Positions 1-60,418 of a DNA stretch of 64,000 bases are shown one piece after another; positions within the stretch are counted from its first letter, which is position 1; the number at the start of each line of letters is the position of its first letter. The position numbers and the translations under genes are program-made. Origin of the DNA: Patescibacteria group bacterium (GTDB lineage: Bacteria > Patescibacteriota > Patescibacteriia > JACRDY01); the NCBI GenBank assembly GCA_041653535.1, contig JBAZFH010000003.1, positions 2,771 to 66,770 on the forward strand, written 5' to 3'. The notes under the pieces were generated by a model. The model was not told the origin of the DNA. It saw only the letters and a program-made list of their open reading frames with translations, and ran no database searches.

Positions 1-825
1 TGCGGTGACGATGTTTATTGTTTGCCGCAAGATAGTGAGATTGAAGTTAATATCAAATCAGCCACCCTTTCACCTAATCCGCCAACCGCTGCTTACGACG
101 GCAGTTACGACGGCGTAACCGATTTGGCGGCAAATTCTTTTAACGGCAACGGTTTGGAGGGGGGTGTTTGTGAAATAAAGTCTTGCGTTTTTGTCGCGCC
201 AAAAGTGAACGGTTGTGATTGCACTATCGGACCGGTAGAAGATAATTATTTTTGGTATTTTAAAACTAACAACAAAATCATTCTTGATCCTCCGTATATT
301 ACCAATATCGATCCGGGTATTTTGTTTAGTGACGTTGCCCCGGATAAAAGAGTGTCGGTTGTTTTTCAACGGTTGTTAATGGGTCGTAGTCTTAATTCTT
401 CCAATATTGCCATTGCGACAAATAATAAGGTGACTTTTAACGGTAGTATTTTAAACGAAAATCTGCCGTTTTGGGTTGGCTTTAGTAATTTAGACAACGC
501 TTCTGATTCTGACAGTGTTCCTGATAACCAGAGTCAGGTATTGATTGATCACGATGATTTTTTGGAAAGCAAAATCGGGGAAAGTCGTTATGATTACTCT
601 TTGCATCTTTCCGCTGGGATAAAAGATATTTATCAAAACTGTTATTATCCGGCCGGCGCCAGTACGGAAGTGAGTGGCGGTTGTAATTATCCTTATCAGT
701 CAGCCGATAAAAACACACCTTCTTGCTGTAACGACATTTTGTATAATACGGCTGACGGCGAAAGTGATGAGTGTCCCAAGCCTTTATGGATTGAATGGCC
801 GGCTTCAGCATCGGCAACGCCATAA
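1..825 (+). CDS. 3' portion of a large secreted cysteine-rich surface protein (gene starts upstream of the window)
   Basis: The frame is open from nt 1 (CGDDVYCLPQ...) with no upstream stop, so the track's 'start' at 22 is an artefact. The C-terminal region is rich in Cys/Gly/Asn/Asp, like the downstream giant protein. Stop at 823-825. Confidence 0.5.
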   Translation, partial: CGDDVYCLPQDSEIEVNIKSATLSPNPPTAAYDGSYDGVTDLAANSFNGNGLEGGVCEIKSCVFVAPKVNGCDCTIGPVEDNYFWYFKTNNKIILDPPYITNIDPGILFSDVAPDKRVSVVFQRLLMGRSLNSSNIAIATNNKVTFNGSILNENLPFWVGFSNLDNASDSDSVPDNQSQVLIDHDDFLESKIGESRYDYSLHLSAGIKDIYQNCYYPAGASTEVSGGCNYPYQSADKNTPSCCNDILYNTADGESDECPKPLWIEWPASASATP

Positions 826-851
826 TAGCTGGTAATATAATTTTAATAAAA

Positions 852-3800
852 ATGAAAAAGACAGAAAGGTATAAAAAGATAATATTTACCGCCAGCATCG
901 TTTTGGCGTTGCTAGTGAGTTTGTTTTGGATTAATTCGATCAATGCGGCTAACAGTAATGATTTTGGTTTGAACCAGGTAGGGCAGGTAGTCAATCTTCC
1001 GACAGCTGATATTCGAGTGACGGTAGCCAATATTATCCGTTATGCTTTAGGATTTTTGGGTATTATTGCCGTCGGTATTTGTTTATATGCCGGTTTTTTG
1101 TGGATGACGTCGGCCGGCGAAGCGGAAAAAATAGAAAAAGCAAAAAGAATTTTAATTGAAGGCGTAATCGGTTTGTTGATTATTGTTTTAGCTTTTGCCA
1201 TTGTCAGTTTTGTTGTTTCCAAACTTTTAGAAGCTACCGGTACAGGAACGGAACCGGATAAAACTTGTTCGACGGAAAATTCCGGCGAAGTCAATGGCTG
1301 CTGGGTTTGTCAATCGTCTTCTTGGACTTACGACAGCAGTATCGCTGGTTGCGGTCGGACTGATGATTTTTGGGTTACCGACATTAAACCAAGAGAAAAT
1401 GCCGTTGGACCAAAAGATACTGTCGTTAGAATTTATTTTAATAAACAAGTTAATTTTGATTCTATAGATTTGGACGATGGCGATATCACTATCTCTAAAA
1501 TCGGCGAAATTGATCCAACGACCAAGGAAGTGACCACTACTTATTCTTCGCCACTAGCGGTTGCCGGAACAATACAGTTTAAATCCGGTGATAAAACAGT
1601 GGTGGAATTTCGTCCTAACGATTTGTGTGACGCTGCTTGCAGTGAAACTTCTGATAAAAAATGTAAAAAATGTTTTAGCCCCTGGGGTTTATATCAGGTT
1701 AATGTCAGGCAGGGATCGATTCAAGATGCCATAAAGGGTAAGTCAAACCAATGCGGTGTGGTTATTGATCATTGCACGAGAAAATTCAAAATAAATGATG
1801 TGATGGATGAGGAGTCACCGAAGGTTAGTATTACTTCTCTGGAACCATCACAAGGCAGGTATGTGCCGGAAAATTATGCGGTCGAAGTCAGGATTTCTGC
1901 CAAGGATAATTACGAAATTTCCGATGTTCAACTTTATATAGACGACATGAATACGCCGGTAGCAACGTTAACTAGTGAACCGTATGTTTATACTTGGCAA
2001 ACTCCGGATGGTTTGGGGTTAAAACATACGTTATTGGCTAAAGCAAGTGATACCGACGATAATCCTGCCGGAGTTTCGGCGGAGCGAGAAGCGATTGTTC
2101 GCGCTTGGCATTGTTTTAATAATCAGAAAGACACTTTTTCTTCTTCGCCGGAAAAAAACGAGTTTGAAATTGATTGCGGCGGAACCGAATGCGGTGCTTG
2201 TGTTGGTGCCGATTGCGATGCGGCTGATAAGGATACTACCACTTGTAAAACTCCGACCAACGACGTTTGTTGGACTAATTATTGCGCGCCGGCTGATTGC
2301 AAATGCGAAGGTTGGCCGGAAATTCAGACAGTAGAGCCAGGTAGAGCGCCAAAAGGAAATTTTGTTACTATTAGAGGAAGGTTTTTTGGTAAGACGTCGG
2401 GACAGGTGGTGTTTTTGGGCGGGGCAGGAGAGGCTGATGATAAGATCGGTATTAAGCCGTCGCAGATTAACAACCAGTGCGATGACGAAAGTTGCTGGAC
2501 AGATACTCAGGTGATTGTAGTGTTGCCAGACGGCGCTGTCAGCGGTCCGATAAAAATTATTACCACTGAGAATAAAGAAGATGCTACTAATGATAATCAC
2601 GGTTCTCAGTTGCTTGATTTTGATGTTTGTACCACTAGCAACGGTAATTGTTATGATTATCCCGGAATTTGTAAATTGAACCCGGCGCAAGGAGCGGCGG
2701 ATGCTTTGTTTAAAATTTACGGAATCAACTTTGGTACTACTCAAGGTAGCGCTCTGGTAAAATTCGGTGGCAAATACAGCGCGGTGATTAATTCTTGGGC
2801 AGATACCGGCAAAGAAGCAGAAGCGCGCGTGCCTAATATTCAAAGCGGGCGTCCGACGGTTACTATCGAACGCGGCGATATAAAGAGCAATCCTTTTGAA
2901 TTTTTAGTAAAATCAAGTCCTTTAGCTAATCCGATTATTTCAGATGTGCAGCCAAAAAGCGGTGGTTTTGGTCAATATGTTACTATTACCGGTCAAAATT
3001 TTGGCAGAGCCGGTGTAGTAGAGTTTATAAATAAAAACGATACCAGTAAAAAATTTCCAGCTGATTTAAACTTCCCTCAGCAGTGTCAGGATAAAATTTG
3101 GAATAATAATCAAGTAATAGTAAAAGTGCCAGATACCGGCAGTGCATTACTTGGTGATTATTTTATCGTTATTAGTCGTTCTTCCGACAATGCTTCTTCG
3201 GCAGCAGCTGATTTTATCATTAATACCGATACACCCACTCCGGGAATTTGTTTGCTCAAACCAGATAACGGTCCGGAAGCAACCCCTGTTTATGTTTTCG
3301 GCGACAGCATGGGGTCACAGAACGGCAGTGTTAATTTTTGGCAAGCAACAGTGACCGCGCCGATTATTTCTTGGAGCGAAGTGGTAAAAGTTCAGGTGCC
3401 GAAAAATACTAAAACCGGTCCGGTGGTGTTAGTTAGTGCACAGGGTAAATCCAGTAATCCTTTGAATTTCTCCGTCGGTTCTTGCCGCGCGGATGATGAT
3501 TGTACTGGTAAGCCGACGGCTGGCGAGTGTGACCAAGATCAGGAACTCGGCGTTTCACCAAAGACCAATTGTTGGGTTTGTAATAAAAGTGTTGCCACGG
3601 GGAATTATTATTGGGAATGGAGCGATACATCCTGTGGCGTTATCGACCAGTGTTGTCCTTCAGGCGTTTGTCAAACCAAAGGTACTTGTGTGGGGATCGG
3701 CGTGCTTTCTTCTTACGCTTGGGCTTTTTCTACCGGAGAGATTCCCCGCTATCCGAAAGTAGTTGAAGAATGTAATCGCGATGAAACTTGTCCGGAGGGA

Positions 3801-6800
3801 GCAAATACCCCCAGCCCCAGTCCTTGGACTCCTCGATGGGATATTAATCGCGGTTTTGATCTAGCTTGTCCCAATTCGGTTATTACTGCTCGATTTAATA
3901 TGGATATGAACCCGGATGATCTCGAAGATGTTAATAATTATAATTTTGAAAAATGCGGATATCAGACCGACGTTAATGGCGACGGTAAAGACGATCATGA
4001 TCCGTGTGTTTGCAGTCCAACGGCAAACTGCGCTTGTATTAACGGCGGCAATACCAACTGTAATCAAAAAATTAATATTACGGCTGATAATTTAATTACT
4101 TTCAACGACGGTTTTATTGTTAATTTTGCCGGAGTTGGCTTGCAGCCGGACAGCTGGTATCGCATGGCTTTACGCAAGGGGGATGCTTTGCCGGGCACAA
4201 CCGGTTTTCATTCCGCCACCGCACAAGGAGGATATCAGTTATTGGCGGATTATATCTGGCAGTTTAAAACTCGCGTTGACAGCGCTAAATGTAAAATTGG
4301 CTGCCCGACAGTGGTGCCGGTTTCTTATACTGCTAATCGTTTGGCAAAGCTTTATTTAAACTGGGATAATCCTGCTTTCCCGCGTAATCCGGTCTATCAC
4401 ACTGCCCAGGCTTCGGCGGAAAATAATCCATGTAATTTGATTGATACTTATGACTATCAGTGGTCCTGGAAGGCTACTGAAGCGGACGGTGCGAATACCA
4501 ATAAAGCCGCTTTGTACCAGATACCAAGTAATGGCTGTAGCGATAGTCGCGATAATGACAATGACGGAAAAAAAGATTATAAAGCCGGCTGTACCGTTGA
4601 CAGCGTTGATTGTGATTATAAATGCGTTTCTTCCTATGATCGATCAGAAGAGGCGGGCGAGCAATTAGTTGCTTATTTTGGCAATCTGCGTCATGCCGAA
4701 GCAATCAAGCCTACTGGTGGAAACACTTATTCTTGCGATTGTGATATTGCTCCACAATGTTCGGATAGCCTAGAAAATGACGGTGATAATAAAGTTGATT
4801 ATCCGGCTGATACGGAATGCGATACGCCTGGTGATTATAGTGAATTACTTTCTGGGTTGCAGACTCGCTCCGACGTTATTGTTGTTGCGCAAAAAGGCGT
4901 AATCACAAATTCTTCGGAAGAATGTCAGCTTTATTGTAAGGGTTTATCTAATAATACCTGGTCTTGGTATAAAACCGGTGGTTATCAAATAGCCGGTGAT
5001 CCGGTTTTAATCAGAGCGCAGGAGCTGTCTTCCGGCAAAGAAGGAAGAGCTAATTTGTTTATTAATCTGGAAGACCCTAAGGTTATTGCTAAATGGCCGG
5101 ATTGTTCACAGGCTTGTGTGAATAGTCAGGTTGGTGCTGCTTTTAATGTACCGATGGCAGAAAATACCTTGGTTGATGCTAAAAATGTCATGCTTTTTTC
5201 TTGCGGTGCCGACCTGGAATGTAAGAAAGAAAATATGTCTTCGGTCCCGATTGAAAATATTGATCCGGATTTAAGTATCGATTATCGTTACAGTGAAAGC
5301 GTTGATGACGGTCTTTATAATTCCGAGCTGACTTTTTATCCTCGCAGCACTACCCCGGGTGATTATAACGGCGGAAAACTTTTGCCAAATACTTATTATC
5401 GCGTGATACTCGGCAGTCCCGATAACGATCCGATACAAAACATCGATGGATTAAAATTGATCGGTTTAAATTACGATAATTATGCCGCTGACAATGTTCC
5501 GGATAGTTATAGCTGGATATTTAGCACCAAAAATGACTATAATTTATGTTCAGTTGATCATGTATCGGTTACTCCTAACAAGGCTTTTTTAAGCGCTATA
5601 CCGGCGTATCAATCTTATTTTAGTCAGGCATTTGGTCGGTCTGACGACTGTAGTCCTTTTGGTCAAAAACTAAACAACAGTTTTTATAGTTGGAAATGGG
5701 AGTCGGAAAAACCGACAGTTGCCCAAACCATTGGTTATAGCGTTGGTTGCGGTAATGGTATTATTGACCGCGGCGAAAATTGTGATGACGGGGTTTATCC
5801 TCCGGTTTCCGGCGACGGTTGTTCAAATAAATGTTTACGAGAGGGTAGTAGCTATTCTGTTTTCGGCTTATGTGGTAACGGGGTGGTGGAAAGCTGGGAA
5901 CAATGCGATTACGGGGTAAAAATCGGTAATCCTGCTTGGACGGAAAATAATTGTAATTCAGCGACTTGTCTATTAAATACGACCAGCAGACCGGCGGGTT
6001 CTTGCCGCGATGGCGTAATTCAGTCTTGGGAAAGCTGCGATTACGGTCCATTGATCACCGATTATTATACCGATCAAGAAGATAACCATGTTTATAATAA
6101 TTACGAAGTAAATAGTTGTAATGCCAATACTTGTTTAAATACTGGCAATACAAATCAAGGTTTGGCGGTTTGTGGTAACGGCAGGCTAGAAGGCGGGGAG
6201 GCTTGTGATGTTGTTGATGAACCAAATAATAACAACACAGACGGTTGTGCTGACAATTGTGTCAGTTCCGGTTCTGTTGATGGACGGTCTTTGTGCGGTG
6301 ATGGTCAGGTAGGTACTGGAGAAGAATGTGAATTATGTTGGAATGATGATAAAAGCGTGTTTTCTGTTATTAGAAACGGTAGTTGTTCCGCTAATAGTCT
6401 TTATGGTCATGGTGATATCGATTCCGGCACTCCAAGCTTTGCTGGTAAGACTAAAGATCCGGCGTCGGCTGAAGCCGGATGTCAGCGTGCCGGAGCGGAT
6501 AAGGTTTCTTGTGTAATTTTAAATTCAAGCGGTGGATATAAATACGATAGAAATCGTATTGGCAATTGGTGGAAATCCTCTTGCCAAAACGGTATCGTCG
6601 ACCGCGGTGAAGAATGTGACCTTGGATCGATAGTGGAAAATTATTATGGCGGTCAGAATAATTATGAAGTCAATAATTGCAATCCGACAAATTGTTTATA
6701 TAACGGTAGTAGCGAAGCAACGCCGGATTTATTAAATCGCAAGGCTTATCAGCTAGCACAATCGGTTGGAGAGGGTCGGGCTAATATCACTGCCTTTACT

Positions 6801-9800
6801 GGCGGTGTTTGTACCGGCGATCCTAAATTTACTGCTTGCATTCAGACAAGCGATTGTCCTCTTAATTCCGTCGGTAATAAATACGAGTGTGATTTGTCTG
6901 GGACTAAAAAAGGATCCTCCGATCTGACGGTGGTTTGCGGTTGGACAGATGAAGCTTGTGCTCTAAATAACGCCGGATACGGCGCTGATGCCAGCGGTTG
7001 CTGTCGAACGCGACCGGTAGTTTATTCTTCTTATCCGCATGGAGATAATGTTTGTCGTAATACTTCTATTAGCGTTCTTTTTGACAGCAATCATCCGATG
7101 GATTTTACTACTTTTAATAGTAAAAATATTTCGGTTTCCGTTGATGGTTGTGCCGTGGCGGTAAATAGTGGCGCAAATAGGTGGTGGCATTATTTGGTGA
7201 ATACTTATCAGAGGGTGAAGGATTGGGTGATTGGTGTTTTTAGTCATCAAGCAAATGCTGCGGAAATAAATGAATGTACGGTAAATTATTCCGTGACTGG
7301 AATTGAATATGTCGATAATGGCGTGGGCAGCGATGGTTTGACCCATAGTAAGATGGTAATTAATCTCTCCTCTCCCTTGCCGCCAAATAAAACGATTAAG
7401 GTTAAATTTGCCTCAGCGGTTAAAGACAGTCTGGGTGTGTCCGTTTTGCGCGGAGCAAATGTTTACGAATGGACTTTTAATACCGGAGAGGAAATTTGTA
7501 GTTTAAATTATGTTCGTCTTAGTCCGACCAGCAAATCTTTTACTCAGACCGATGAAGTAGAAAATTTTGTTGCCTCGACATTTAATGCCAACGGACAGGA
7601 AATAGAAATGGTTCCGGGATTTTATTCTTGGAACTGGAGTTGGTCGTTGACACCGGAAATAAATAATACCAGTGCAACTTTAAGCGCGGGAGTAGCTACT
7701 TATTGTTCGGTTACCAATAAGGCTTGTAACCCTGAACACGGTAATGCTGATTGTGTCGACCCGAAATATCCTAGTCAGGTTTGCGGCGCGCCGTATAATT
7801 ATCCTTATGTTAGTCGGGTTACGTCTCAAAAAACTAACGGCGAAGGACAACTGATTGCCACCGCCACCATTACCTCGGATAGTATTATAGATGCCGGAAA
7901 AACTTTTGCCGCTCAGGCAGGAGTGGTGGTGTTTGTTTGTGAAAACCCATGGCCACAGGTTTGTAGCGCGACCATTGCTTCTGGTAATTTACTTGCTTGC
8001 GAAAAAGATGACGATTGTTATACCGAAGTCGGTCATCAATATGTCGGTCCGTGTAAATTCGATGCTGTTAGTAATTTTAGCGATTCGGATAATACCATAG
8101 TTTCGCAATTCAAAAACCCGGAAAATTATACCAATTTCCGTACTTATTATTGTCGTGACGCTGGGTCTGCTGGGTTTGATGACGATTTGCCAGCTTTAGT
8201 GTATCCGCCAATATTTACCCAAACTCCCGTTTTGCCTGCACAAAAAGGATTAATTCGCCACATTCTTTTGCCACGTGATAATTTTCGCCGTGGTGGAGAG
8301 ACCGGTGGATCAAATGATGCTTTGATTATGAGTGTTGAAGCTAACCCGCAGCATATTTCCGCCGCGCAGTGGTTCTCTGACAGGTTTGATGCCAGCGCTA
8401 CTGCGGCTAAAGCAGTGGGCGGTTATTCGGCGGTTAGCAAAGACAGTACATATTATATTAATGCCGCCAATTGGAGCCGTAGTACTAATACGATGTACAC
8501 CAATATTTATATTTTGTCCCAAAGCCAGAATTCTAATGTTAATACTAAAAATATTTTTCAGCAGTTGCTGAATAATATGAAATTTAATGTTAATGTAGAT
8601 GGTCAGGGTGTGGGTACTGATTTGTGCCGTGCTGGAACGGGGCTGGTAACTAAAAAACCTTTTGTTTGCAGCAATAACAAAAAAACCTCCTGTGTCGCTG
8701 ATACTGACTGTGGCGCGGACGGTAAGTGTGAAATTTTAGGTTGGTGTAATAACGACAACAGTAAATCGTGTTCGACCTTAGATGTTGGTAATACCGTTGA
8801 TAATGAATGCGGCGACGAGGCAGTGTTGCCAAAGGCTTTTTGCGATACCAACGCTTTCGCCGAGCCGATTTCTTGTTCCAAAGATTTCGATTGCTATCGT
8901 TGCAAGGATAATACCAATGTCGTTTGCGAACTAGATTCCGATTGTCCGAACGTCTATTCAGGCGCTTGTGCCAAAGACGTCAGTGGTAATGCCGCTTATT
9001 GTGACGCGCCTAGAGCGAAATTGATTCGTAATACGCAACGTTTGGCTGATTTGCATACCATGACCAGTATTTTGAATAATTACTATCAAAAAAATAACAA
9101 ATATCCAACACTTGATGCCGGTTCTTATGTTTCTGGAAGAAGCTATAGTACCTGGCCTTCTTGGCAGGCAACTCTGGGTAACGATCTTGGTAGTGGTTTG
9201 CCCGTTGACCCAATTGATCAGTTTAACGGCTGCTATGACGCTAATTATAACTTTAACCGTCAGACTTGTTGGGATAATAAGGCGTTACTGTTTTCTTGCC
9301 CGCAAAATTCTTATACTTATTTCTATTCCAGTAATAATGGCGGTAATGAGGGTAGGGTTTTGGTGCATCTGGAAAAACCAGAAAACGGTGATATTAATGT
9401 GTATGAATCAGACTACGAAGATCAAGATTATTTTGATGCTGTATCGGATAATTGTAAAAATTTTTCCGGTTATTCGATCAATGATTCCGATCAAGACGGT
9501 GTCCCGGATTTTGGCGATAATTGTCCTTATGAGAAAAACGGATATGTCGGAAGCGATTGTCCGACGAATGCGCCGCAGTGCTGTCCTTTTACCGACAAAA
9601 AGAAATGTTGCGCTTGGTATGGTACTGCCGACGAAGAAAAATATTGCGGTCAGGCAAATACTGATGGCGATAATTTAGGCAATTCTTGTGATTGGATTTG
9701 TCCGGTCGATGGGAATAACGATTCTGATAATGATTTTGTTTGCGGCGGACAAGACAATTGTTGGTCGGTGTATAATCCTTTGCAGGTAGACAGTGATGGT

Positions 9801-11345
9801 GATTGCCAGATGATCGGTAAGCCATATTTATTAAATCCGAAATGCGGCGATGCTTGCGATGTTGATTGTTGGGGGACCGACCCAGACGACTGCAAGACAA
9901 AATGCAATGCTTTGGCAAATACTTGGTGGACCGGCTTTGGCGGCACTGCTAATTGTTGTGGTGACGACACGACTGATAATAAAGATTATGGCTGTGTAGT
10001 ACAAAAGAGTTGCGGTAATGGCGTAATCGATCAGCGAAAAGACGGTGTCTGGGAGAAGTGTGATGACGGTGATACAAACACGGCTAATGTATGCAATAAT
10101 AGCTGTACTTGGAACTGTAAAGATAACAGCAGCCAAGCAACAATTACTTTTACTCCGGAAGAAAAATCATTGGTTACACTGCAACCAAACGCCACCATGG
10201 TAAATACCACGGTTAATATTCCGGTTTGTCGTACCGCAAATAAAATAACAATGAAAGTTTATCAAGATGCTGGCGCGGTTGGTGGTAGCTCGGTTGCCTT
10301 GGTGTTTGTATCCGATCTATCTGGTAGTATGAATGAAATATTAGAATCACCAAAAACTCGTTTAGACGTTCTCAAAGAATCTCTTAAGACAGCTATTAGC
10401 ACGTTGATTGATGAGGGCGCTGGTGTGGAAGTTGGGCTGGTTAGTTATGCTCTGACGTCCGGACCAGACACTCCTGGATTTTTACCGGTGCAAGAATCGC
10501 AAAATACTTTAAATGGCGTTATAGATAGTTATGTTGCTGGTGTCGGTGGTCTGCGGGGCAGCTCCACGTATCAGGATTTAGGGCTGCAGGAAGCTCAGAA
10601 AATGTTTAATGATTATCCCAAGGATTCTTCTGGCAAAGATTTTGACAAGAAGGTGGTTGTATTTATGACTGATGGCAATTTTAGCGGTAGTCACGATGCT
10701 ATGGCGGAAGCGACCGTATTAAAAAATCCAAACATCGGCGTAGATATGTTTACCGTGGCGTTGACAGCTGATTTGGGTCTTCGTGCCTATATGAATGGGC
10801 TCTCTTCCAGTAATTGCATCTGCGGGGATAATAATTGTAAGAATAAAGTCAGCGGTACTAGCGGTGGAGATGGCGTAGTAACTTGTAGAACCGCTAATGA
10901 TTTATTAGAGGAGTGTGATCTGACGCGAGACAGTATTTATTGTAAACAAGAAACAAATGAATTAAATTGGGTTAGTTCTGGTCGTAATAGGGCTTATAGC
11001 GCTACTACCGCCAGTCAGTTGCAGGGTTTATATGAAACGATTGCCGGTGCTATTTCCGATGAAACTGTCGCAGTTACTTTTAATGGCGGTCCGCAGCTGA
11101 CATTTAATAATTATCAGTATAATCCGGTGAATAATAAATACGAAGGTACTTTGGAAATAACACTAGATTCGACATATTGTTCATCGACCATGCCGACCGA
11201 GTCAAGCGATGAGTTTAAGGCTTATAATATTTCTTTCCAAACACCTATTGTCAAACCGGTGGTCTTTAGTGCCGGTAAACTACTTTTCTGTCCTTGGAAA
11301 AATGGTTATTATGGAGAGAGCGAAATAATAAAATCAACACTTTAA
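852..11345 (+). CDS. giant (~3,497 aa) multidomain cell-surface protein: signal peptide, TrbC/VirB2-type (T4SS-pilin-like) membrane hairpin, IPT/TIG-like repeats, Myxococcus-type Cys-rich repeats, TSP3-like Ca-binding repeats, C-terminal vWA domain
   Basis: The ATG at 852 (MKKTERYKKIIFTASIVLALLVSLFWINSINAANS, signal-peptide-like) lies inside track ORF 795..11345; the frame is uninterrupted for 10.5 kb. Motifs are read directly from the translation: GFLGIIAVGICLYAGFLWMTSAGEAEKIEKAKRILIEGVIGLLIIVLAFAIVSFVV; repeated P..G..VTIxGxNFG; at least 7 CGNG(V/I)(V/I)xxGExCDxG...C modules; DxDxDGxxDxxDNCP; DLSGSM...VVVFMTDG. Confidence 0.8.
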   Translation: MKKTERYKKIIFTASIVLALLVSLFWINSINAANSNDFGLNQVGQVVNLPTADIRVTVANIIRYALGFLGIIAVGICLYAGFLWMTSAGEAEKIEKAKRILIEGVIGLLIIVLAFAIVSFVVSKLLEATGTGTEPDKTCSTENSGEVNGCWVCQSSSWTYDSSIAGCGRTDDFWVTDIKPRENAVGPKDTVVRIYFNKQVNFDSIDLDDGDITISKIGEIDPTTKEVTTTYSSPLAVAGTIQFKSGDKTVVEFRPNDLCDAACSETSDKKCKKCFSPWGLYQVNVRQGSIQDAIKGKSNQCGVVIDHCTRKFKINDVMDEESPKVSITSLEPSQGRYVPENYAVEVRISAKDNYEISDVQLYIDDMNTPVATLTSEPYVYTWQTPDGLGLKHTLLAKASDTDDNPAGVSAEREAIVRAWHCFNNQKDTFSSSPEKNEFEIDCGGTECGACVGADCDAADKDTTTCKTPTNDVCWTNYCAPADCKCEGWPEIQTVEPGRAPKGNFVTIRGRFFGKTSGQVVFLGGAGEADDKIGIKPSQINNQCDDESCWTDTQVIVVLPDGAVSGPIKIITTENKEDATNDNHGSQLLDFDVCTTSNGNCYDYPGICKLNPAQGAADALFKIYGINFGTTQGSALVKFGGKYSAVINSWADTGKEAEARVPNIQSGRPTVTIERGDIKSNPFEFLVKSSPLANPIISDVQPKSGGFGQYVTITGQNFGRAGVVEFINKNDTSKKFPADLNFPQQCQDKIWNNNQVIVKVPDTGSALLGDYFIVISRSSDNASSAAADFIINTDTPTPGICLLKPDNGPEATPVYVFGDSMGSQNGSVNFWQATVTAPIISWSEVVKVQVPKNTKTGPVVLVSAQGKSSNPLNFSVGSCRADDDCTGKPTAGECDQDQELGVSPKTNCWVCNKSVATGNYYWEWSDTSCGVIDQCCPSGVCQTKGTCVGIGVLSSYAWAFSTGEIPRYPKVVEECNRDETCPEGANTPSPSPWTPRWDINRGFDLACPNSVITARFNMDMNPDDLEDVNNYNFEKCGYQTDVNGDGKDDHDPCVCSPTANCACINGGNTNCNQKINITADNLITFNDGFIVNFAGVGLQPDSWYRMALRKGDALPGTTGFHSATAQGGYQLLADYIWQFKTRVDSAKCKIGCPTVVPVSYTANRLAKLYLNWDNPAFPRNPVYHTAQASAENNPCNLIDTYDYQWSWKATEADGANTNKAALYQIPSNGCSDSRDNDNDGKKDYKAGCTVDSVDCDYKCVSSYDRSEEAGEQLVAYFGNLRHAEAIKPTGGNTYSCDCDIAPQCSDSLENDGDNKVDYPADTECDTPGDYSELLSGLQTRSDVIVVAQKGVITNSSEECQLYCKGLSNNTWSWYKTGGYQIAGDPVLIRAQELSSGKEGRANLFINLEDPKVIAKWPDCSQACVNSQVGAAFNVPMAENTLVDAKNVMLFSCGADLECKKENMSSVPIENIDPDLSIDYRYSESVDDGLYNSELTFYPRSTTPGDYNGGKLLPNTYYRVILGSPDNDPIQNIDGLKLIGLNYDNYAADNVPDSYSWIFSTKNDYNLCSVDHVSVTPNKAFLSAIPAYQSYFSQAFGRSDDCSPFGQKLNNSFYSWKWESEKPTVAQTIGYSVGCGNGIIDRGENCDDGVYPPVSGDGCSNKCLREGSSYSVFGLCGNGVVESWEQCDYGVKIGNPAWTENNCNSATCLLNTTSRPAGSCRDGVIQSWESCDYGPLITDYYTDQEDNHVYNNYEVNSCNANTCLNTGNTNQGLAVCGNGRLEGGEACDVVDEPNNNNTDGCADNCVSSGSVDGRSLCGDGQVGTGEECELCWNDDKSVFSVIRNGSCSANSLYGHGDIDSGTPSFAGKTKDPASAEAGCQRAGADKVSCVILNSSGGYKYDRNRIGNWWKSSCQNGIVDRGEECDLGSIVENYYGGQNNYEVNNCNPTNCLYNGSSEATPDLLNRKAYQLAQSVGEGRANITAFTGGVCTGDPKFTACIQTSDCPLNSVGNKYECDLSGTKKGSSDLTVVCGWTDEACALNNAGYGADASGCCRTRPVVYSSYPHGDNVCRNTSISVLFDSNHPMDFTTFNSKNISVSVDGCAVAVNSGANRWWHYLVNTYQRVKDWVIGVFSHQANAAEINECTVNYSVTGIEYVDNGVGSDGLTHSKMVINLSSPLPPNKTIKVKFASAVKDSLGVSVLRGANVYEWTFNTGEEICSLNYVRLSPTSKSFTQTDEVENFVASTFNANGQEIEMVPGFYSWNWSWSLTPEINNTSATLSAGVATYCSVTNKACNPEHGNADCVDPKYPSQVCGAPYNYPYVSRVTSQKTNGEGQLIATATITSDSIIDAGKTFAAQAGVVVFVCENPWPQVCSATIASGNLLACEKDDDCYTEVGHQYVGPCKFDAVSNFSDSDNTIVSQFKNPENYTNFRTYYCRDAGSAGFDDDLPALVYPPIFTQTPVLPAQKGLIRHILLPRDNFRRGGETGGSNDALIMSVEANPQHISAAQWFSDRFDASATAAKAVGGYSAVSKDSTYYINAANWSRSTNTMYTNIYILSQSQNSNVNTKNIFQQLLNNMKFNVNVDGQGVGTDLCRAGTGLVTKKPFVCSNNKKTSCVADTDCGADGKCEILGWCNNDNSKSCSTLDVGNTVDNECGDEAVLPKAFCDTNAFAEPISCSKDFDCYRCKDNTNVVCELDSDCPNVYSGACAKDVSGNAAYCDAPRAKLIRNTQRLADLHTMTSILNNYYQKNNKYPTLDAGSYVSGRSYSTWPSWQATLGNDLGSGLPVDPIDQFNGCYDANYNFNRQTCWDNKALLFSCPQNSYTYFYSSNNGGNEGRVLVHLEKPENGDINVYESDYEDQDYFDAVSDNCKNFSGYSINDSDQDGVPDFGDNCPYEKNGYVGSDCPTNAPQCCPFTDKKKCCAWYGTADEEKYCGQANTDGDNLGNSCDWICPVDGNNDSDNDFVCGGQDNCWSVYNPLQVDSDGDCQMIGKPYLLNPKCGDACDVDCWGTDPDDCKTKCNALANTWWTGFGGTANCCGDDTTDNKDYGCVVQKSCGNGVIDQRKDGVWEKCDDGDTNTANVCNNSCTWNCKDNSSQATITFTPEEKSLVTLQPNATMVNTTVNIPVCRTANKITMKVYQDAGAVGGSSVALVFVSDLSGSMNEILESPKTRLDVLKESLKTAISTLIDEGAGVEVGLVSYALTSGPDTPGFLPVQESQNTLNGVIDSYVAGVGGLRGSSTYQDLGLQEAQKMFNDYPKDSSGKDFDKKVVVFMTDGNFSGSHDAMAEATVLKNPNIGVDMFTVALTADLGLRAYMNGLSSSNCICGDNNCKNKVSGTSGGDGVVTCRTANDLLEECDLTRDSIYCKQETNELNWVSSGRNRAYSATTASQLQGLYETIAGAISDETVAVTFNGGPQLTFNNYQYNPVNNKYEGTLEITLDSTYCSSTMPTESSDEFKAYNISFQTPIVKPVVFSAGKLLFCPWKNGYYGESEIIKSTL
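1017..1230 (+). other. pilin-like double-TM hairpin segment of the giant protein (TrbC/VirB2 / T4SS-pilin-like family, as seen in CPR bacteria)
   Basis: The hairpin has two hydrophobic helices separated by MTSAGEAEKIEKAKRIL, with a GFLWMTS motif typical of this conjugative-pilin-like family. Confidence 0.55.
10290..10810 (+). other. von Willebrand factor A (vWA) domain with MIDAS motif in the C-terminal region of the giant protein
   Basis: VALVFVSDLSGSM (DxSxS MIDAS) followed by ...LVSYA... and ...KKVVVFMTDGNF (second metal-coordinating T/D), giving a Rossmann-like alternation. Confidence 0.6.
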
Positions 11346-11351
11346 GATTGT

Positions 11352-12104
11352 ATGATAAAAAATAAGAAAGTAATATTAATATCGTCAGTGTTGCTTTTAG
11401 CGGTATTGCTTTTTTTTGGCTGCGCTCAAAAAGATGAAAATGGAACCGATGGTGCGCAAGTGAGAGGTGTGCAAATTGAACTAAAGCCAATCAATATTCA
11501 AAACGGTAAAATAATAAGAGACAGCAGCTATTTTGCTAACAAACAGGCAAAATGCGATACTGTATCTGATAATAAAAAAGATAACTGCTTGCAGAAAGTT
11601 AAGTTAGAACAGGCAATAGTTTTGAACCAAGTTAATCAATGTGCTGATTTGGGGGACAAAAAAGATGTCTGTTATCGTGAGTTTGCTTTTAAACAAAACA
11701 ATATTGGTTTGTGTGAATCGATAAGTGATACCACGGGTAAAGATTATTGTAAAAATGCCGTGCTTAATATTTTAGCGGCAAAACAAAAAAAGGCTGATTT
11801 TTGTTTGCAGATATCCGACGAGCAAAAAAAGATTAGTTGTTTGAGTCAGTTGATTAATGAAAACACTAAAACTGCTTTTTGCCAAACCAAGATAATAGCC
11901 GACAACAACCTTGCGGAAACCTGTGTCAATTTCATTTACTATAAACAAGCCTGGGTGAAGAAAGATCGTAAATTATGTGATAAAATTACAGTAGCGTCAA
12001 AAAGAGACGAGTGTTATCAGCTTTTTGATGTTGAGTTGAAAATATCCGCACCTTCGACAACGACAACCACCGTTACAACCAAGAGTAATACCACGGTCAA
12101 ATAA
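11352..12104 (+). CDS. lipoprotein with six tandem C-x(9-12)-C repeat modules
   Basis: Signal peptide plus lipobox (LLFFGC) and a periodic pair-of-Cys pattern (CDTVSDNKKDNC, CADLGDKKDVC, CESISDTTGKDYC, CLQISDEQKKISC, CQTKIIADNNLAETC, CDKITVASKRDEC). The Thr-rich C-terminus resembles a linker. Confidence 0.6.
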   Translation: MIKNKKVILISSVLLLAVLLFFGCAQKDENGTDGAQVRGVQIELKPINIQNGKIIRDSSYFANKQAKCDTVSDNKKDNCLQKVKLEQAIVLNQVNQCADLGDKKDVCYREFAFKQNNIGLCESISDTTGKDYCKNAVLNILAAKQKKADFCLQISDEQKKISCLSQLINENTKTAFCQTKIIADNNLAETCVNFIYYKQAWVKKDRKLCDKITVASKRDECYQLFDVELKISAPSTTTTTVTTKSNTTVK

Positions 12105-12126
12105 AATAATTATTATACCTACTATT

Positions 12127-12819
12127 ATGTTCGACGATCTAAAAAATAATCAACAGCCAAATTCTAATCAGCCGGTCAAAGAGCCCGAAGACATTTTTTC
12201 GGGAGTAGACTCTTCGGTTAGTCCTCAGGTGAAACGACCGGTTAGTCCTATTATGTCAAATATGGAAGCAATGCCTGATCCGTCGGCTAATTCCATGATG
12301 CCATCAACGGAAATACCGATAGCACCTAATTTAAAAATGAAAAAAATTATTGTTATTTTGATCGTGGTTCTAGCTATTGTTTTTGTGGTTTTAGCCGGTT
12401 GGTTGGTATATGCCAAGTATTTTAGCGCTAATCAGTCGTCGCTTGGAGAAAATAACCTTAATAATGTTTTGCCGGAATTAAATTTGAATCAAGAGGACGC
12501 CAATTTGAACGAAGAAAACAAAAATATTAATCAAGGTACCGGTCTGATTGATCAAGTAAATCAATCACAAAACATCAGCCAACCAACAAAAGATTCTGAT
12601 TCCGATGGATTGACCGATCAAGAGGAGGTAACTTTAGGCACTGATTCTTTTCTCGCAGATTCCGATTTAGACGGTTTATTTGATAAAGAAGAGGTGTATA
12701 TTTATAAAACCGATCCTTTAAATTCTGATACTGATGGTGACGGATATAAAGACGGTCAGGAGGTAAAAGGTGGCTATGATCCTAACGGTCCGGGCAGACT
12801 GTTTAGTATACCGGAGTAA
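12127..12819 (+). CDS. single-pass membrane protein with extracellular DxDxDG calcium-binding (TSP3/dockerin-like) repeats
   Basis: Cytoplasmic N-terminus, a TM helix (KKIIVILIVVLAIVFVVLAGWLVY), an N/Q-rich low-complexity region, then DSDSDGLTDQEEV...DSDLDGLFDKEEV...DTDGDGYKDGQEV. Confidence 0.6.
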   Translation: MFDDLKNNQQPNSNQPVKEPEDIFSGVDSSVSPQVKRPVSPIMSNMEAMPDPSANSMMPSTEIPIAPNLKMKKIIVILIVVLAIVFVVLAGWLVYAKYFSANQSSLGENNLNNVLPELNLNQEDANLNEENKNINQGTGLIDQVNQSQNISQPTKDSDSDGLTDQEEVTLGTDSFLADSDLDGLFDKEEVYIYKTDPLNSDTDGDGYKDGQEVKGGYDPNGPGRLFSIPE

Positions 12820-12829
12820 TTATTAAATT

Positions 12830-13882
12830 ATGGCTATATTTGATTTTTTAAAGAAAAAAATAACTGGTGATGTTCTGAAGGTCGCGCAAAAAAAACAGCC
12901 GGAAGTAAAAATTAAATCAGAAGACATTCATGTAATGCCGGAAAAATTTTTTATTGCGTCAAAACAAGGAATGAGCAGTAAAACAAAGATAATTATTGCC
13001 ATCGCAGTGGTTGTTTTATTATTTGTTATTGGAGCTATATTTTTTAGTGTTGATTGGAGTGATACCGGCGGACAAAACGTTTTAATTAGCCCCAATATTA
13101 ATGTTTTAAACACGAACCAAGATATTATTAATGGCGAAGTTTTTAGCGGATTAACAGAACAAGTCAATTCCAATCTTAACATAAATGAGTTGAATAGTAA
13201 CATTAATATAAATGCGGAGCAGTCTCGGTCAAACGAAAACATTAATAATGCGCCGAGCGTTAGTAGTCAGTCTGGTAGTGCGGTGAATACTACTGATGAT
13301 TTTTTGCCGCCGATTGTTTTTATCGCCGGCAAAGACACTGATGCTGACAATTTAACTGATTTAGAGGAAGCTATGTATGGTACTAGTCCCAATAAGCCCG
13401 ATACTGATTTGGATAGTTATTTAGACGGTCAAGAAGTGGCTGGCGGTTATGATCCAATGTTAATTAATAAAAAGATTACCGATTCTTCGCAGATAAAAAA
13501 ATATTTTAGTCAGCGTTTTTCCTTTGCTATTTTATATCCCGCCAAATGGACTTATTCTATTTCCGGAGTACGCGAAGATAGAATAATATTTTCTTCTGCC
13601 GATAATGAAACAATTAATCTTTCGGTTATTGACGGGCAGACTTCGCTTGAAGAATGGTATCGACAGAATGTAGATAATAAGCAGGTTAATATTCCTTTGC
13701 GAGTTTTACCAAACGGTGATCAGGTAATTACCAGTTTGAACGGTTTAGCAATTTACACTAAAAAGTCTGGAATAAATATAATATATTCCCTAGTTTATCA
13801 GCCGAATTCAGAGAATGAAGTTAATTATAAAACTACTTTTGAAATGATGGCGGGCAGTATTATGCAAGAAATCGGAGGTTAG
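12830..13882 (+). CDS. paralogous single-pass membrane protein with DxDxD Ca-binding repeats and a C-terminal globular domain
   Basis: Same architecture as the preceding gene (TM IIIAIAVVVLLFVIGAIFF, N-rich linker, DTDADNLTDLEE...DTDLDSYLDGQEV) with an extra C-terminal ~170 aa. Confidence 0.6.
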   Translation: MAIFDFLKKKITGDVLKVAQKKQPEVKIKSEDIHVMPEKFFIASKQGMSSKTKIIIAIAVVVLLFVIGAIFFSVDWSDTGGQNVLISPNINVLNTNQDIINGEVFSGLTEQVNSNLNINELNSNININAEQSRSNENINNAPSVSSQSGSAVNTTDDFLPPIVFIAGKDTDADNLTDLEEAMYGTSPNKPDTDLDSYLDGQEVAGGYDPMLINKKITDSSQIKKYFSQRFSFAILYPAKWTYSISGVREDRIIFSSADNETINLSVIDGQTSLEEWYRQNVDNKQVNIPLRVLPNGDQVITSLNGLAIYTKKSGINIIYSLVYQPNSENEVNYKTTFEMMAGSIMQEIGG

Positions 13883-13883
13883 A

Positions 13884-14327
13884 ATGATTAACATTGATAT
13901 TAACAATAAAGTTGTCGGAGTCAAAATTGATAAAAGATTAGTGGAAAAAGTTGCTTCAGCGGTTAGTCGTTCTTTGGTTTTAAAGAAAGAACGTTGTGTC
14001 TCTTTGGTATTAGTTGGCGATGCGGTGATTCGTAAACTAAACAAAACCTATCGCAAAAAAGATAAAATTACAGACGTTTTAAGCTTTGAATATTTAGATA
14101 AAAATTTTGTTGGTTCAACTGAAGACTATTTGGGCGAGATATTTATTTGTTATCCCCAGATAAAGCGTCAAGCTGTAAAAAATGGAAACTCAATAAAAAA
14201 AGAGTTTGCCTTATTACTTATCCATGGATTAGTCCATCTATTTGGCTATGATCATGAAAAAAGCGTCAAAGATGAAAGATTTTTTGATAAACAACAAAAA
14301 ACTATTTTACAAAAAATTGGTTTGTAA
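13884..14327 (+). CDS. ybeY: rRNA maturation endoribonuclease YbeY
   Basis: The HGxxHLxGYDH metal-binding motif (LLLIHGLVHLFGYDHEKS) is present; size is 147 aa. Confidence 0.85.
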   Translation: MINIDINNKVVGVKIDKRLVEKVASAVSRSLVLKKERCVSLVLVGDAVIRKLNKTYRKKDKITDVLSFEYLDKNFVGSTEDYLGEIFICYPQIKRQAVKNGNSIKKEFALLLIHGLVHLFGYDHEKSVKDERFFDKQQKTILQKIGL

Positions 14328-14344
14328 ATTAAATTTATATTATT

Positions 14345-15598
14345 ATGAATCACGAAGAAATCATTGCGGGGCTCGATATAGGCTCGTCTGCTGTCAGAAT
14401 GGTGGTGGGTCAGCGATCTCCTGAACAAAAATTGAATATTATTGCTGCGGCTGAAGTGCCGGCAGAAGGCATCACCAAAGGTACGGTAGTCAGTATTGAG
14501 GAGGCGGTAAATAGTATTTCTCGTTGTTTGGAGAAAACCGAAAAAATCGCTGGTGTAAAAATAGAAAGTGCTTGGGTTGGTATTTCCGGAAGCCATATTT
14601 TGTGTCAGGAATCAAAAGGAGTAGTAGCGGTTTCTCGCAGTGATGGTGAAATAAGCGAAGATGATGTCGATAGAGCTATTGAGGCAGCGAGAACAGTGGC
14701 AACGCCGTCTAATTATGAAATACTACATGTTATTCCCAAAAGTTTTACCATTGACGGTCAAACTAATATTAAAGATCCGGTTGGAATGAGTGGAATTCGT
14801 TTGGAGGTTGATTCGCAGATTATTCAAGGATTGTCCCCGCAGATTAAAATATTAACCAAATGTGTTTATCGTACCGGTTTAGATATAGACGATTTAGTCT
14901 TATCTATTTTAGCTTCTTCAGAAGCAGTGTTAACTAATCGTCAAAAAGATTTAGGCGTTGTTTTGGTCAATATCGGCGCGGCAACCACCAGTATTATCGT
15001 CTTTGAAGAGGGGAATGTGCTTCATACCAGTATTTTACCGCGCGGATCAGAAGATATTACTAAGGATTTGGCTATTATGCTACGGGTTTCCATCGATACT
15101 GCGGAAAAAATAAAAATAGATTATGGTACTGCGCTTGCTAAAGATGTTACTAAAAAAGAAGAAATCAATTTAGCTGATTTTGATTCAACGCTTAATGAAG
15201 CCGATGCCATAGCTTCTCGCAAGTATGTTGCTGAAATTATTGAAGCAAGGGTGGAAGAAATTTTTGAAAAAATTGATGTTGAGTTAAAAAAGGTTGATCG
15301 TTCCGGCAGTTTACCGGCAGGTGTAGTTTTAATCGGCGGTGGAGCTAAGCTGCCGGGAATAGTGGATGTGGCAAAAAGAAAATTGAGATTACCGGCTTGT
15401 TTAGGCTTTGCTCAAAATTTGACTGCCGCTATTGATAAGGTCCAAGATCTGGGATTTTTAACCGCTGTTGGTTTGGTGGCATGGGGTGATCAATTGACAA
15501 AAGGACAAAAAAAAGGGTTTTCTTTTTCTCGTTTTGGTGGCAGTGTTTCTCAAGTTAGGGAGAAAATTCGTGGTTGGTTTAGGGATATAATGCCCTAG
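14345..15598 (+). CDS. ftsA: cell division protein FtsA
   Basis: Actin-like ATPase N-terminus IAGLDIGSSAVRMVVG and the overall FtsA pattern; it sits immediately upstream of ftsZ. Confidence 0.9.
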   Translation: MNHEEIIAGLDIGSSAVRMVVGQRSPEQKLNIIAAAEVPAEGITKGTVVSIEEAVNSISRCLEKTEKIAGVKIESAWVGISGSHILCQESKGVVAVSRSDGEISEDDVDRAIEAARTVATPSNYEILHVIPKSFTIDGQTNIKDPVGMSGIRLEVDSQIIQGLSPQIKILTKCVYRTGLDIDDLVLSILASSEAVLTNRQKDLGVVLVNIGAATTSIIVFEEGNVLHTSILPRGSEDITKDLAIMLRVSIDTAEKIKIDYGTALAKDVTKKEEINLADFDSTLNEADAIASRKYVAEIIEARVEEIFEKIDVELKKVDRSGSLPAGVVLIGGGAKLPGIVDVAKRKLRLPACLGFAQNLTAAIDKVQDLGFLTAVGLVAWGDQLTKGQKKGFSFSRFGGSVSQVREKIRGWFRDIMP

Positions 15599-15620
15599 GT
15601 TTTTTTCTTTTAGTTTTTTA

Positions 15621-15629
15621 TGATATAAT
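15621..15629 (+). promoter_or_regulatory. extended -10 promoter element (TGaTATAAT) in the ftsA-ftsZ spacer, candidate ftsZ-proximal promoter
   Basis: tgatataat lies 58 nt upstream of the ftsZ ATG inside the 88-nt intergenic gap. Confidence 0.35.
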
Positions 15630-15686
15630 ATTACTAGTTTTAAAGACTGTTGATAAATTGAGTAATAATAGTGTTCATGCAATTTT

Positions 15687-16853
15687 ATGGCTGAAGTCAA
15701 ACCAGATATTGAAACTTTCGCAAAGATTAAGGTGTTGGGCGTCGGAGGTTCTGGCGGTTCTGCACTTAATCGAATGATTGCCGCTAAAATCAAAGGAGTG
15801 GAGTTTATTGCCGTCAATACCGATGTGCAGGCTCTTTATTATTGTCAAGCACCGCATAAAATTCATGTTGGCAAATCAGTCACTCGTGGATTGGGGGCGG
15901 GCATGGATCCTGATTTAGGGAGGTCAGCAGCAGAAGAGAATCAAAACGATATTCGTGATGCCGTGCGCGATGCTGATATGGTGTTTATTACTTGCGGGCT
16001 TGGCGGAGGTACTGGTACTGGCGCAGCGCCGGTGATTGCTGAAATATGTCGCGACACCGGAGCGTTAACGGTTGCCGTAGTAACCAAACCTTTTGCTTTT
16101 GAAGGAGCGCAACGGCGGGCAATAGCAGAAAGAGGATTAGAAGAGCTGGCTGCCAGAGTTGATACCATCATTACCATTCCTAACGATCGACTTTTACAAA
16201 TTATTGATAAAAAAACTTTGCTGCTCGATGCTTTTAATATTGTTGACGATGTTTTACGTCAGGGTGTGCAGGGAATATCCGAGCTAATTACTGTTCCTGG
16301 TCTTATCAATGTTGACTTTGCTGACGTGAAGGCGATTATGAAAGATAGCGGTTCGGCTCTTATGGGTATTGGTCAGAGCAAAGGCGAAAATCGTGCTGTT
16401 GAAGCGGCTAAATCAGCTATTGCTTCGCCGCTACTCGAACTCTCTATAGAGGGTGCTAAAGGTATATTATTTACTATTGCCGGGTCAAGCAATCTTTCAA
16501 TGCATGAAGTTAGCGAAGCAGCGAAAATTATTACTAATTCAGCTGATCCTGACGCCAAGGTTATTTTTGGAGCTATTATCAACGAGGATTTGGGCGACGA
16601 TATTAAAATTACAGTTGTGGCTACTGGATTTGAAAAAAATAAGAAATCCAGCGAGTCTTTGACTCAAGTAAACAGCTATAAACCAAGTAAATTTGTGGCT
16701 CGCAAAAAAGAGGAGGAAGAATATGAAAAAGAAGATGAGGAAGATGGCGAAAAAACCAGATTATTTGGCAAAAAGACAATAGATGAGCCAAAATGGGAAG
16801 AAGACGAAGAGGGTGAGATACCAGCGTTTATTAGAAAAAAAATAAAAAAATAG
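15687..16853 (+). CDS. ftsZ: cell division GTPase FtsZ
   Basis: The tubulin signature GGGTGTG (TCGLGGGTGTGAAPVIAE) is present, with an acidic, K-rich C-terminal tail. Confidence 0.95.
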   Translation: MAEVKPDIETFAKIKVLGVGGSGGSALNRMIAAKIKGVEFIAVNTDVQALYYCQAPHKIHVGKSVTRGLGAGMDPDLGRSAAEENQNDIRDAVRDADMVFITCGLGGGTGTGAAPVIAEICRDTGALTVAVVTKPFAFEGAQRRAIAERGLEELAARVDTIITIPNDRLLQIIDKKTLLLDAFNIVDDVLRQGVQGISELITVPGLINVDFADVKAIMKDSGSALMGIGQSKGENRAVEAAKSAIASPLLELSIEGAKGILFTIAGSSNLSMHEVSEAAKIITNSADPDAKVIFGAIINEDLGDDIKITVVATGFEKNKKSSESLTQVNSYKPSKFVARKKEEEEYEKEDEEDGEKTRLFGKKTIDEPKWEEDEEGEIPAFIRKKIKK

Positions 16854-19154: not shown

Positions 19155-19184
19155 TTTTTGGCTTAATTTTGCTATAATTATAGC

Positions 19185-58294: not shown

Positions 58295-60418
<2,124 letters not shown>

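Follow-up and report, generated by a model that had tools for sequence, protein, structure and literature searches.

The 64,000-nt stretch of DNA analysed here (the window; contig JBAZFH010000003.1 of assembly GCA_041653535.1, positions 2,771 to 66,770) comes from an uncultured Patescibacteria (candidate phyla radiation, CPR) bacterium and carries an uninterrupted open reading frame (ORF) of 10.5 kb. Its predicted product, referred to here as the giant, joins an N-terminal membrane hairpin of the kind found in conjugative pilins to several thousand residues of adhesion-type modules. The locus raises two questions: whether such a polypeptide is real, and whether it acts as a subunit of a type IV secretion system (T4SS) pilus, as a surface adhesin or in some other capacity. 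Patescibacteria account for a large part of bacterial diversity, and attachment to other cells is their usual way of life. Our preferred answer, to which we assign a probability of about 0.55, is that the giant is a Sec-exported surface adhesin which a VirB2-type hairpin anchors in the cytoplasmic membrane, with a variable tip that likely makes contact with a host or another surface.

The giant ORF is real. It forms one frame of 3,497 aa without an internal stop, as established by the ORF listing and translation. The open frame as listed runs from 795 to 11345 (3,516 aa), but the gene 5' of the giant ends at 825, hence before 852. Because of this upstream stop, because the NCBI record MFA5358872.1 (on a 132.5-kb contig) is an identical protein of 3,497 aa under the name "Ig-like domain-containing protein" [Patescibacteria group bacterium], and because alignments to homologues begin at the homologues' own residues ~3-13, we place the start at ATG 852, as an earlier note on this DNA had done (MKKTERYKK...), in preference to 795.

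An identical product is encoded in an independent Logan assembly of SRR18595300, and three relatives from other samples are intact and collinear with the giant: P0073 (3,276 aa; 34% identity over 1,735 aligned positions), P0076 (3,552 aa; 37% identity over 1,826 aligned positions) and a further ORF of 3,370 aa. No tandem or dispersed DNA repeats were found across window positions 1-14,000, which indicates that the repeats seen at the protein level have diverged and makes a repeat collapse unlikely; assembly collapse of the ORF was rejected on this ground. The idea that several genes were merged by an assembly or frameshift error, or that the ORF is decaying, finds its one point of support in locus L089, where a 153-aa pilin is separate from a 1,523-aa ectodomain ORF. 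In that locus (L089:6477-11548) the "free pilin", P0004, occupies the same syntenic position as the giants and is followed, after 38 nt, by the second ORF. Since a signal peptide is missing from this ORF and its first residues already belong to a Cys-rich module, L089 is better explained as a frameshifted fused gene than as two genes, and the split thus speaks against the merger it seemed to favour. With an intact frame that recurs in a second assembly, the intact collinear relatives and the lack of DNA repeats, an artefact or pseudogene is very improbable, and in the data examined neither internal stops nor a set of separate genes underlies the single polypeptide that the earlier note had described.

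The L089 case also means that some small-pilin matches are N-terminal fragments of giants; a 120-aa pilin ORF located just before the giant in L038 may be a similar case. Censuses of small VirB2-like pilins may therefore include such fragments, as P0004 shows. The G+C content of the giant ORF is 0.41-0.45, against mostly 0.35-0.40 in the rest of the window; the amino-acid composition of the giant (Gly, Asp, Cys, Ala) is the probable cause.

The N-terminus of the giant carries the features of a pilin. A hydrophobicity scan identified segments at aa 7-34 (signal peptide), 56-89 and 96-130. AlphaFold2 (AF2), run with the family alignment, predicted one helix at 54-86 (first transmembrane helix, TM1) and another at 91-129 (TM2), with a per-residue confidence (pLDDT) above 90 in the hairpin. 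The loop between them is short, basic and K/R-containing (SAGEAEKIEKAKR), and the motifs D.R, LGFLG, YAGFLWMT and IGLLII are conserved. Against a gathering score of 26.6 bits, the T4SS_pilin family PF18895 matched aa 57-121 at 25.8 bits when the whole protein was scored, at 27.9 bits with aa 1-500 and at 31.5 bits with aa 1-143; the NCBIfam model of Mycoplasma ICE pilin-like proteins, NF045849, reached 32.9 bits, under its cut-off of 40. A search with aa 1-160 retrieved 71 relatives, nearly all annotated as PF18895, at up to 53% identity and E-values down to 4e-38, and a profile built from them scored 140 bits on the giant, in an end-to-end match that was the only one in the window. The hairpin consensus is almost identical to that of short pilins, with the same residues conserved. 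Judged by sequence and architecture (signal peptide, two helices, short basic loop), the giant belongs to PF18895, which bears out the T4SS_pilin-like hairpin proposed in the earlier note; it departs from the small stand-alone form of the family (~110-170 aa) in that its pilin module lies at the extreme N-terminus of a 3,497-aa protein.

The relationship to TrbC/VirB2, also proposed there, shows at the level of the family. PF04956 (TrbC/VirB2) scored 13.2 bits on the giant (E 0.11; cut-off 27.9), and 17 of 53 close relatives matched at E<0.01, the best at 2.6e-6. When the hairpin-family alignment was compared by hhalign with four VirB2 genes of Ti-type plasmids (Agrobacterium-type VirB2), the probability was 51% and the E-value 1.5e-4; the 55 aligned columns were 33% identical and kept the mature N-terminus, TM1 and TM2 in register. 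It is plausible from these alignments that the hairpin belongs to VirB2/TrbC proper, through a link that would be remote. Foldseek with the AF2 hairpin against the PDB gave none but generic helical matches and nothing at E<0.001, helical hairpins not being discriminating. Sequence searches of the PDB with the hairpin, the hairpin profile, the remaining 3,364 aa and a profile of the middle module gave no match, nor did tblastn of the hairpin against plasmids or a comparison with PHROGs, and an exact-pattern scan of GTDB genomes with the whole giant protein found no close relative.

Cleavage of the signal peptide would leave the mature N-terminus outside, followed by TM1, a short basic cytoplasmic loop, TM2 and an outward-facing C-terminus. 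With this N-out/C-out topology, the ~3,370 aa after the hairpin are predicted to lie extracytoplasmically, in agreement with the module content and with the 167 Cys residues (4.8% of the giant), nearly all of which are in the ectodomain. The modules are listed in the table below; about 40% of the giant has no Pfam assignment. The IPT/TIG-like repeats and the C-terminal vWA domain with its metal-ion-dependent adhesion site (MIDAS), both named in the earlier note, were recovered above their Pfam cut-offs. The MIDAS motif DLSGS (DxSxS) lies at aa 3155-3159, and the downstream MIDAS Thr and Asp were judged by eye. The count of at least seven Cys-rich repeats in that note agrees with the motifs, five CG[ND]G found by regular expression plus CRDG and CQNG read by eye, while the TIGR02232 model resolves three stretches; a further copy lies at aa 3054. 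The claimed TSP3 repeats fared less well: one canonical motif is present, DSDQDGVPDFGDNCP, and the stretch at aa 2877-2894 stayed below the PF02412 threshold. The motif KLIRNTQRLADLHTMTSILNNYYQKNNKYPTL is also present in the giant protein. Directly after the hairpin, the Ig-like domain gave no significant Pfam match at aa ~173-323; a precomputed "Big_5 (faint)" match, without a position, is attached to the giant and its relatives. Within the module at aa 2335-2875, a PsbP/LpqN-like alpha/beta domain (~2467-2574) is followed by a Cys-rich linker and then by a domain similar to the head of a type IV pilin or pseudopilin (~2715-2870), and Foldseek found no match to it under E 0.03. The giant ends in ...IIKSTL and has no LPXTG wall anchor.

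Pilin modules fused to large ectodomains proved to be common. An exhaustive HMMER search with aa 1-330 against 1.84 billion cluster representatives matched 25,517 proteins at E<=1e-3 and 5,216 at E<=1e-10. Among the best 148 representatives, 103 are at least 1,000 aa long, 90 at least 2,000 aa and 52 at least 3,000 aa, the longest having 6,217 aa; a single pilin module at residues ~6-131 was found in every one of 102 long representatives. The combination in a single polypeptide, which the earlier note had called unusual, is thus the mark of a large recurrent family. Its description as poorly characterised is accurate, since the literature searched contained no paper describing pilin hairpins fused to giant ectodomains, nor the two-gene cassette presented below. 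Four proteins of 427-606 aa (P0075, P0127, P0204 and P0177) show four to seven tandem pilin-module matches, and such "poly-pilin" polypeptides are a further architecture of the family.

Conservation within the family is uneven along the chain. Collinearity with the giant extends over aa 1-2900 in dozens of representatives, and 0-4 have a counterpart of aa 3000-3497. The tails differ as well: vWA in P0154, a LamG-like stretch in P0166 (by eye), precomputed Laminin_G_3 matches on P0089 and P0115, and elsewhere tails without a match to that of the giant. Together these two observations indicate a conserved stalk with an exchangeable distal end. A conserved N-terminal part of ~2,900 aa and a variable C-terminus would also be expected of a polymorphic-toxin-like device, in which a stalk delivers exchangeable C-terminal effectors. 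We consider this very improbable, because the C-terminus of the giant is a vWA binding domain and not a toxin, other tails are of LamG type (Laminin_G_3) or have no assigned fold, the downstream genes encode conserved TSP3 membrane proteins rather than variable immunity proteins, and PHROGs gave no match. A CdiA/Rhs-like polymorphic toxin system was accordingly rejected on the vWA C-terminus and the conserved TSP3 neighbours.

Together with a smaller gene, the giant gene forms a cassette of two that many CPR lineages have conserved. The gene directly upstream encodes a 722-aa protein with a signal peptide, a T4SS_pilin hairpin (PF18895, 32.8 bits) and a Big_5 ectodomain (34.6 bits), both above cut-offs; we refer to such proteins as medium fusions. 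The order S26 signal peptidase, HisRS, (S21), YqeY, medium fusion, giant fusion, two to three small transmembrane/TSP3_bac proteins, YbeY, FtsA and FtsZ is seen in L001, which encodes the identical giant, and recurs in L003, L004, L006, L007 and L008, from other samples and lineages that include Magasanikbacteria and Buchananbacteria, and the giants in these syntenic contigs measure 3,276-6,028 aa. A scan of GTDB species representatives with the N-terminal 330-aa alignment returned at least 575 stretches, of which the 80 loci kept form the basis of all locus counts given here. Among the matches listed are Buchanan-, Uhr-, Falkow-, Magasanik-, Komeili- and Veblenbacteria, Parcubacteria and Paceibacter. 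A medium gene (459-1,098 aa, median 663) lies directly 5' of the large gene in 66 of the 80 loci; the large genes of these pairs have a median of at least 2,675 aa, 24 being cut by the locus end. HisRS, S26 or YqeY was present upstream in 57 of 60 loci with enough flank, and YbeY, FtsA or FtsZ downstream in 8 of 10. A phage or mobile-element origin of the locus was rejected in view of these housekeeping neighbours with their conserved synteny. Many GTDB records with a Patescibacteria-type locus (L010, L011, L016, L018, L019 and others) bear the title "uncultured Gammaproteobacteria bacterium"; L016 is the same contig as L008, where the synteny is of CPR type, and the titles look like placeholder mislabels.

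The two hairpins of a cassette resemble each other more than their counterparts elsewhere. Across 67 genome pairs (66 from L009-L088 plus the pair in the window), the medium and giant hairpins of one genome share a median identity of 61%, compared with 47-49% for orthologous hairpins between genomes. The higher likeness within a genome may reflect either gene conversion (concerted evolution) or co-adaptation.

The genomic setting could also point to a structural role, in which the giant is a wall-spanning or S-layer-like scaffold of the envelope, possibly positioned relative to the division site, and the hairpin is an inherited anchor with no function in host contact or secretion. The position in the core genome, the conserved synteny beside ybeY-ftsA-ftsZ, the gaps of 1-26 nt that separate the window genes from the partner through ftsA, the conservation of the first ~2,900 aa across lineages and the absence of T4SS genes near the loci examined all agree with such a scaffold. 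It is nonetheless unlikely in our judgement: a lineage-variable distal module is typical of ligand-recognition ends and not of scaffolds, vWA/MIDAS, TIG and LamG are binding domains, and genes may keep their order in small, rarely rearranged genomes without sharing a function.

Whether the giant takes part in a T4SS pilus was considered from its hairpin and its neighbourhood. VirB2-like pilins have been reported in 1,948 assemblies, of which 1,135 have them near virB4, and in arrays of 2-11 pilin genes (PMC12102498, PMC10633639, PMC12857230). In the Saccharibacterium Southlakia epibionticum, small VirB2-like pilins are encoded within the T4SS cluster, the pilin array and the T4SS are essential, and adhesins are also needed for epibiotic growth (PMC10633639); no PrgB-type T4SS adhesin was detected in the Patescibacteria survey (PMC12102498, PMC10633639, PMC12857230). 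These reports leave room for a modular VirB2-type pilin, whose hairpin would be extracted by the T4SS into the pilus (at its tip, at its base or at low stoichiometry) and whose ectodomain would serve as a pilus adhesin in place of VirB5 or PrgB. The retention in the hairpin of residues conserved in small pilins and the family-level link to VirB2/TrbC (PF04956, hhalign) favour it, and vWA-bearing modular type IV pilins provide a precedent in another pilin superfamily (PMC8179133).

The surroundings of the gene argue in the opposite direction. No VirB4, VirB6 or other T4SS gene was found among the Pfam-scanned ORFs of the window, the remaining ORFs being judged housekeeping by eye, nor were T4SS genes found in the 7 kb upstream of the window (L001) or within ~10 kb (or to the contig end) of six related loci (L003, L004, L006, L007, L008 and L089). 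A genuine five-gene small-pilin array of the same subfamily likewise had no VirB4 within 10 kb. In addition, subunits that each bear an appendage of 3,370 aa could not pack into a helix unless their stoichiometry were very low, and the fold search could not distinguish the hairpin from other helical hairpins. In favour of incorporation, both pilin termini of the F- and T-pilus lie on the outer face of the filament, so that a C-terminal extension is geometrically possible. Incorporation of the giant into a pilus is unproven because no T4SS ATPase lies near any locus examined, and the T4SS connection rests on family-level homology and published work. We therefore regard the modular pilin as possible but doubtful, and hold with the same reserve that the medium and giant fusions could be functional VirB2-type pilins. 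They would then co-assemble, together with small pilins, as parts of the T4SS filament of a monoderm Patescibacterium or as structures attached to it.

The evidence as a whole is most consistent with a membrane-held surface adhesin. Under this model, the Ig-like and disulfide-rich modules, some of them probably calcium-binding, would build up an extended stalk through the wall, with the variable distal module displayed at its end. In the giant this module is a putative metal-dependent vWA/MIDAS domain, whose ligand would be located on a host cell or another surface. The giant would probably act together with its upstream paralogue through hairpin-hairpin contacts. Because the residues of small pilins are kept and the hairpin co-evolves with that of its neighbour, specific oligomerisation is a more probable function for it than generic anchoring; the contacts would be with the partner and perhaps also with small pilins.

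Several points weigh against this model. Host binding is a prediction, as are the topology and the cleavage site, and the locus is core-genomic, beside division genes and not in a T4SS cluster, which fits a general envelope role as well as adhesion. No function could be assigned to two long stretches of the protein, aa 870-1600 and 2220-2870, and the TSP3 repeats are below threshold. Few relatives share the vWA tip, and any statement about its ligand is therefore limited to the lineage of the giant. Finally, gene conversion between adjacent paralogues could explain the higher hairpin identity within genomes.

Table. Coordinates of the giant gene, its predicted modules and its neighbours in the window.
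Feature	Position	Strand	Basis
Upstream partner gene, 3' part (274 codons)	1..825	+	Full protein 722 aa; full gene L001:4902-7070
Giant ORF	852..11345	+	3,497 aa; ORF listing, Logan assembly, NCBI record
Sec-type signal peptide, aa 1-31	852..944	+	Hydrophobicity; AF2 helix 4-33; predicted cleavage INA|AN read from sequence
VirB2-like pilin module, aa 32-135	945..1256	+	PF18895; NF045849 below cut-off; AF2; consensus near that of short pilins
Big_5-like Ig domain with conserved Cys, aa ~173-323, directly after hairpin	1368..1820	+	Conserved columns of aa 1-330 family alignment
Big_7 bacterial Ig domain, aa 323-393	1818..2030	+	42.5 bits vs cut-off 24.1
IPT/TIG repeats, three stretches, aa ~500-870	2349..3461	+	PF01833 54.7 bits
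Cys-rich acidic repeats (TIGR02232/DUF4215 type), aa ~1633-1990	5748..6821	+	TIGR02232 46.5 bits, three stretches; DUF4215 26.3 bits
Big_5 Ig-like domain, aa 2130-2211	7239..7484	+	32.3 bits vs cut-off 23.6
Conserved module of unassigned function, aa 2335-2875	7854..9476	+	Three sub-parts
TSP3-like repeats, putatively calcium-binding, aa ~2877-2990	9480..9821	+	PF02412 18 bits vs cut-off 25, weak
vWA domain, aa 3150-3315	10299..10796	+	VWA_2 33.3 vs 27 bits; VWA 28.1 vs 23.8 bits
C-terminal region of unassigned fold, lineage-variable distal end, aa 3316-3497	10797..11342	+	aa 3100-3497 common to 0-2 best representatives
Small Cys-rich predicted lipoprotein, 250 aa, lipobox-like LFFGC	11352..12104	+	Translation; 6-nt gap after giant
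Single-TM protein with extracellular bacterial TSP3 repeats	12127..12819	+	TSP3_bac 58.5 bits
Second single-TM protein, TSP3-like DTDADNLTD motifs	12830..13882	+	Translation; tblastn equivalents in 18/80 loci

The conserved downstream block covers window positions 11352-16853. Its first gene encodes the predicted lipoprotein, which has no Pfam match, carries a repeated Cys motif (C..xxD...K..C) and has a tblastn equivalent in 1 of the 80 related loci. The first of the two single-TM proteins has syntenic equivalents in L003, L004, L006, L007 and L008. Two further ORFs, at 16902-19208 (- strand, 768 aa) and 19185-20828 (+ strand, 547 aa), had no Pfam match; at the syntenic positions L003 encodes a 723-aa protein without a match and a PMT_2-type glycosyltransferase. 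The window ORFs recognised by eye include dcw, rml, isc and other housekeeping genes. Nearly all window genes lie on the + strand, apart from genes such as gyrB at 58295-60406 (- strand), and a local drop in GC skew occurs at 58-62 kb. RP4 TraF, the enzyme that matures TrbC, is also of the S26 type, like the signal peptidase encoded near the cassette, which might process the hairpin proteins.

The T4SS and VirB2-like pilins of Patescibacteria are essential in the one species tested, their function is unknown, and a recent survey detected no adhesin of this system in the phylum (PMC12102498, PMC12857230, PMC10633639). Binding proteins of several thousand residues with a pilin hairpin, encoded by a core-genome cassette in hundreds of species, are concrete candidates for a contact apparatus. 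If the fusions did act as pilins, no earlier conjugative-type pilus subunit would have had a giant adhesin built into it. They would also fill the place of the adhesin that is missing from the essential T4SS of Patescibacteria, and host range would be set by the exchangeable C-terminal module. Co-occurrence of the cassette with virB4, co-assembly of the hairpins and variation of the tip module in step with the host are predictions that can be tested on these candidates.

Among known systems, the giant shares with the VirB2-like pilins of Patescibacteria (PF18895; the arrays of Southlakia epibionticum ML1 and TM7x) a signal peptide, a two-helix hairpin and conserved motifs, and its hairpin is 40-50% identical to those of true small-pilin-array members, which likewise occur in Patescibacteria. 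Unlike these small pilins, which are ~110-170 aa long, often arranged in arrays and often located near virB4 (PMC12102498), it has a 3,370-aa ectodomain, a core-genome locus, one paralogous partner and no T4SS genes nearby. With VirB2/TrbC (Agrobacterium T-pilus, RP4) it has the hairpin architecture in common, the relationship being remote; its organism is monoderm, its loop is longer, and for the giant cyclisation, pilus formation and a linked T4SS are conjectural. PrgB-type adhesins of Gram-positive conjugative T4SSs may be functional analogues, as surface adhesins serving a monoderm T4SS, although the giant shows no homology to PrgB, lacks an LPXTG anchor and follows another anchoring principle.

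The modular type IV pilin PilB of Streptococcus sanguinis (PMC8179133) resembles the giant in that a vWA/MIDAS domain is grafted onto a pilin module in a monoderm, and in design it is the closest analogue. The likeness is confined to design: PilB-type pilins belong to an unrelated superfamily with one N-terminal helix and a class III signal peptide, and the graft of the giant is more than 20 times larger. In the N-terminus of the giant, read from its sequence, no class III signal or G|F/M...E motif is present, and a Sec-type signal and a two-helix hairpin are found instead. The giant membrane proteins of Vampirococcus lugosii (1,392-4,163 aa) are likewise very large predicted surface proteins with adhesion-type domains from an episymbiotic lineage; they come from Absconditabacteria, have other domain sets, and a pilin-type anchor has not been reported for them (PMC8080830). 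Giant membrane proteins of CPR bacteria are generally interpreted as host-attachment factors (PMC8080830). Taken together, the giant pilin fusions, apparently undescribed so far, represent a variant of both VirB2-like pilins and giant CPR surface proteins that is widespread in sequence databases.

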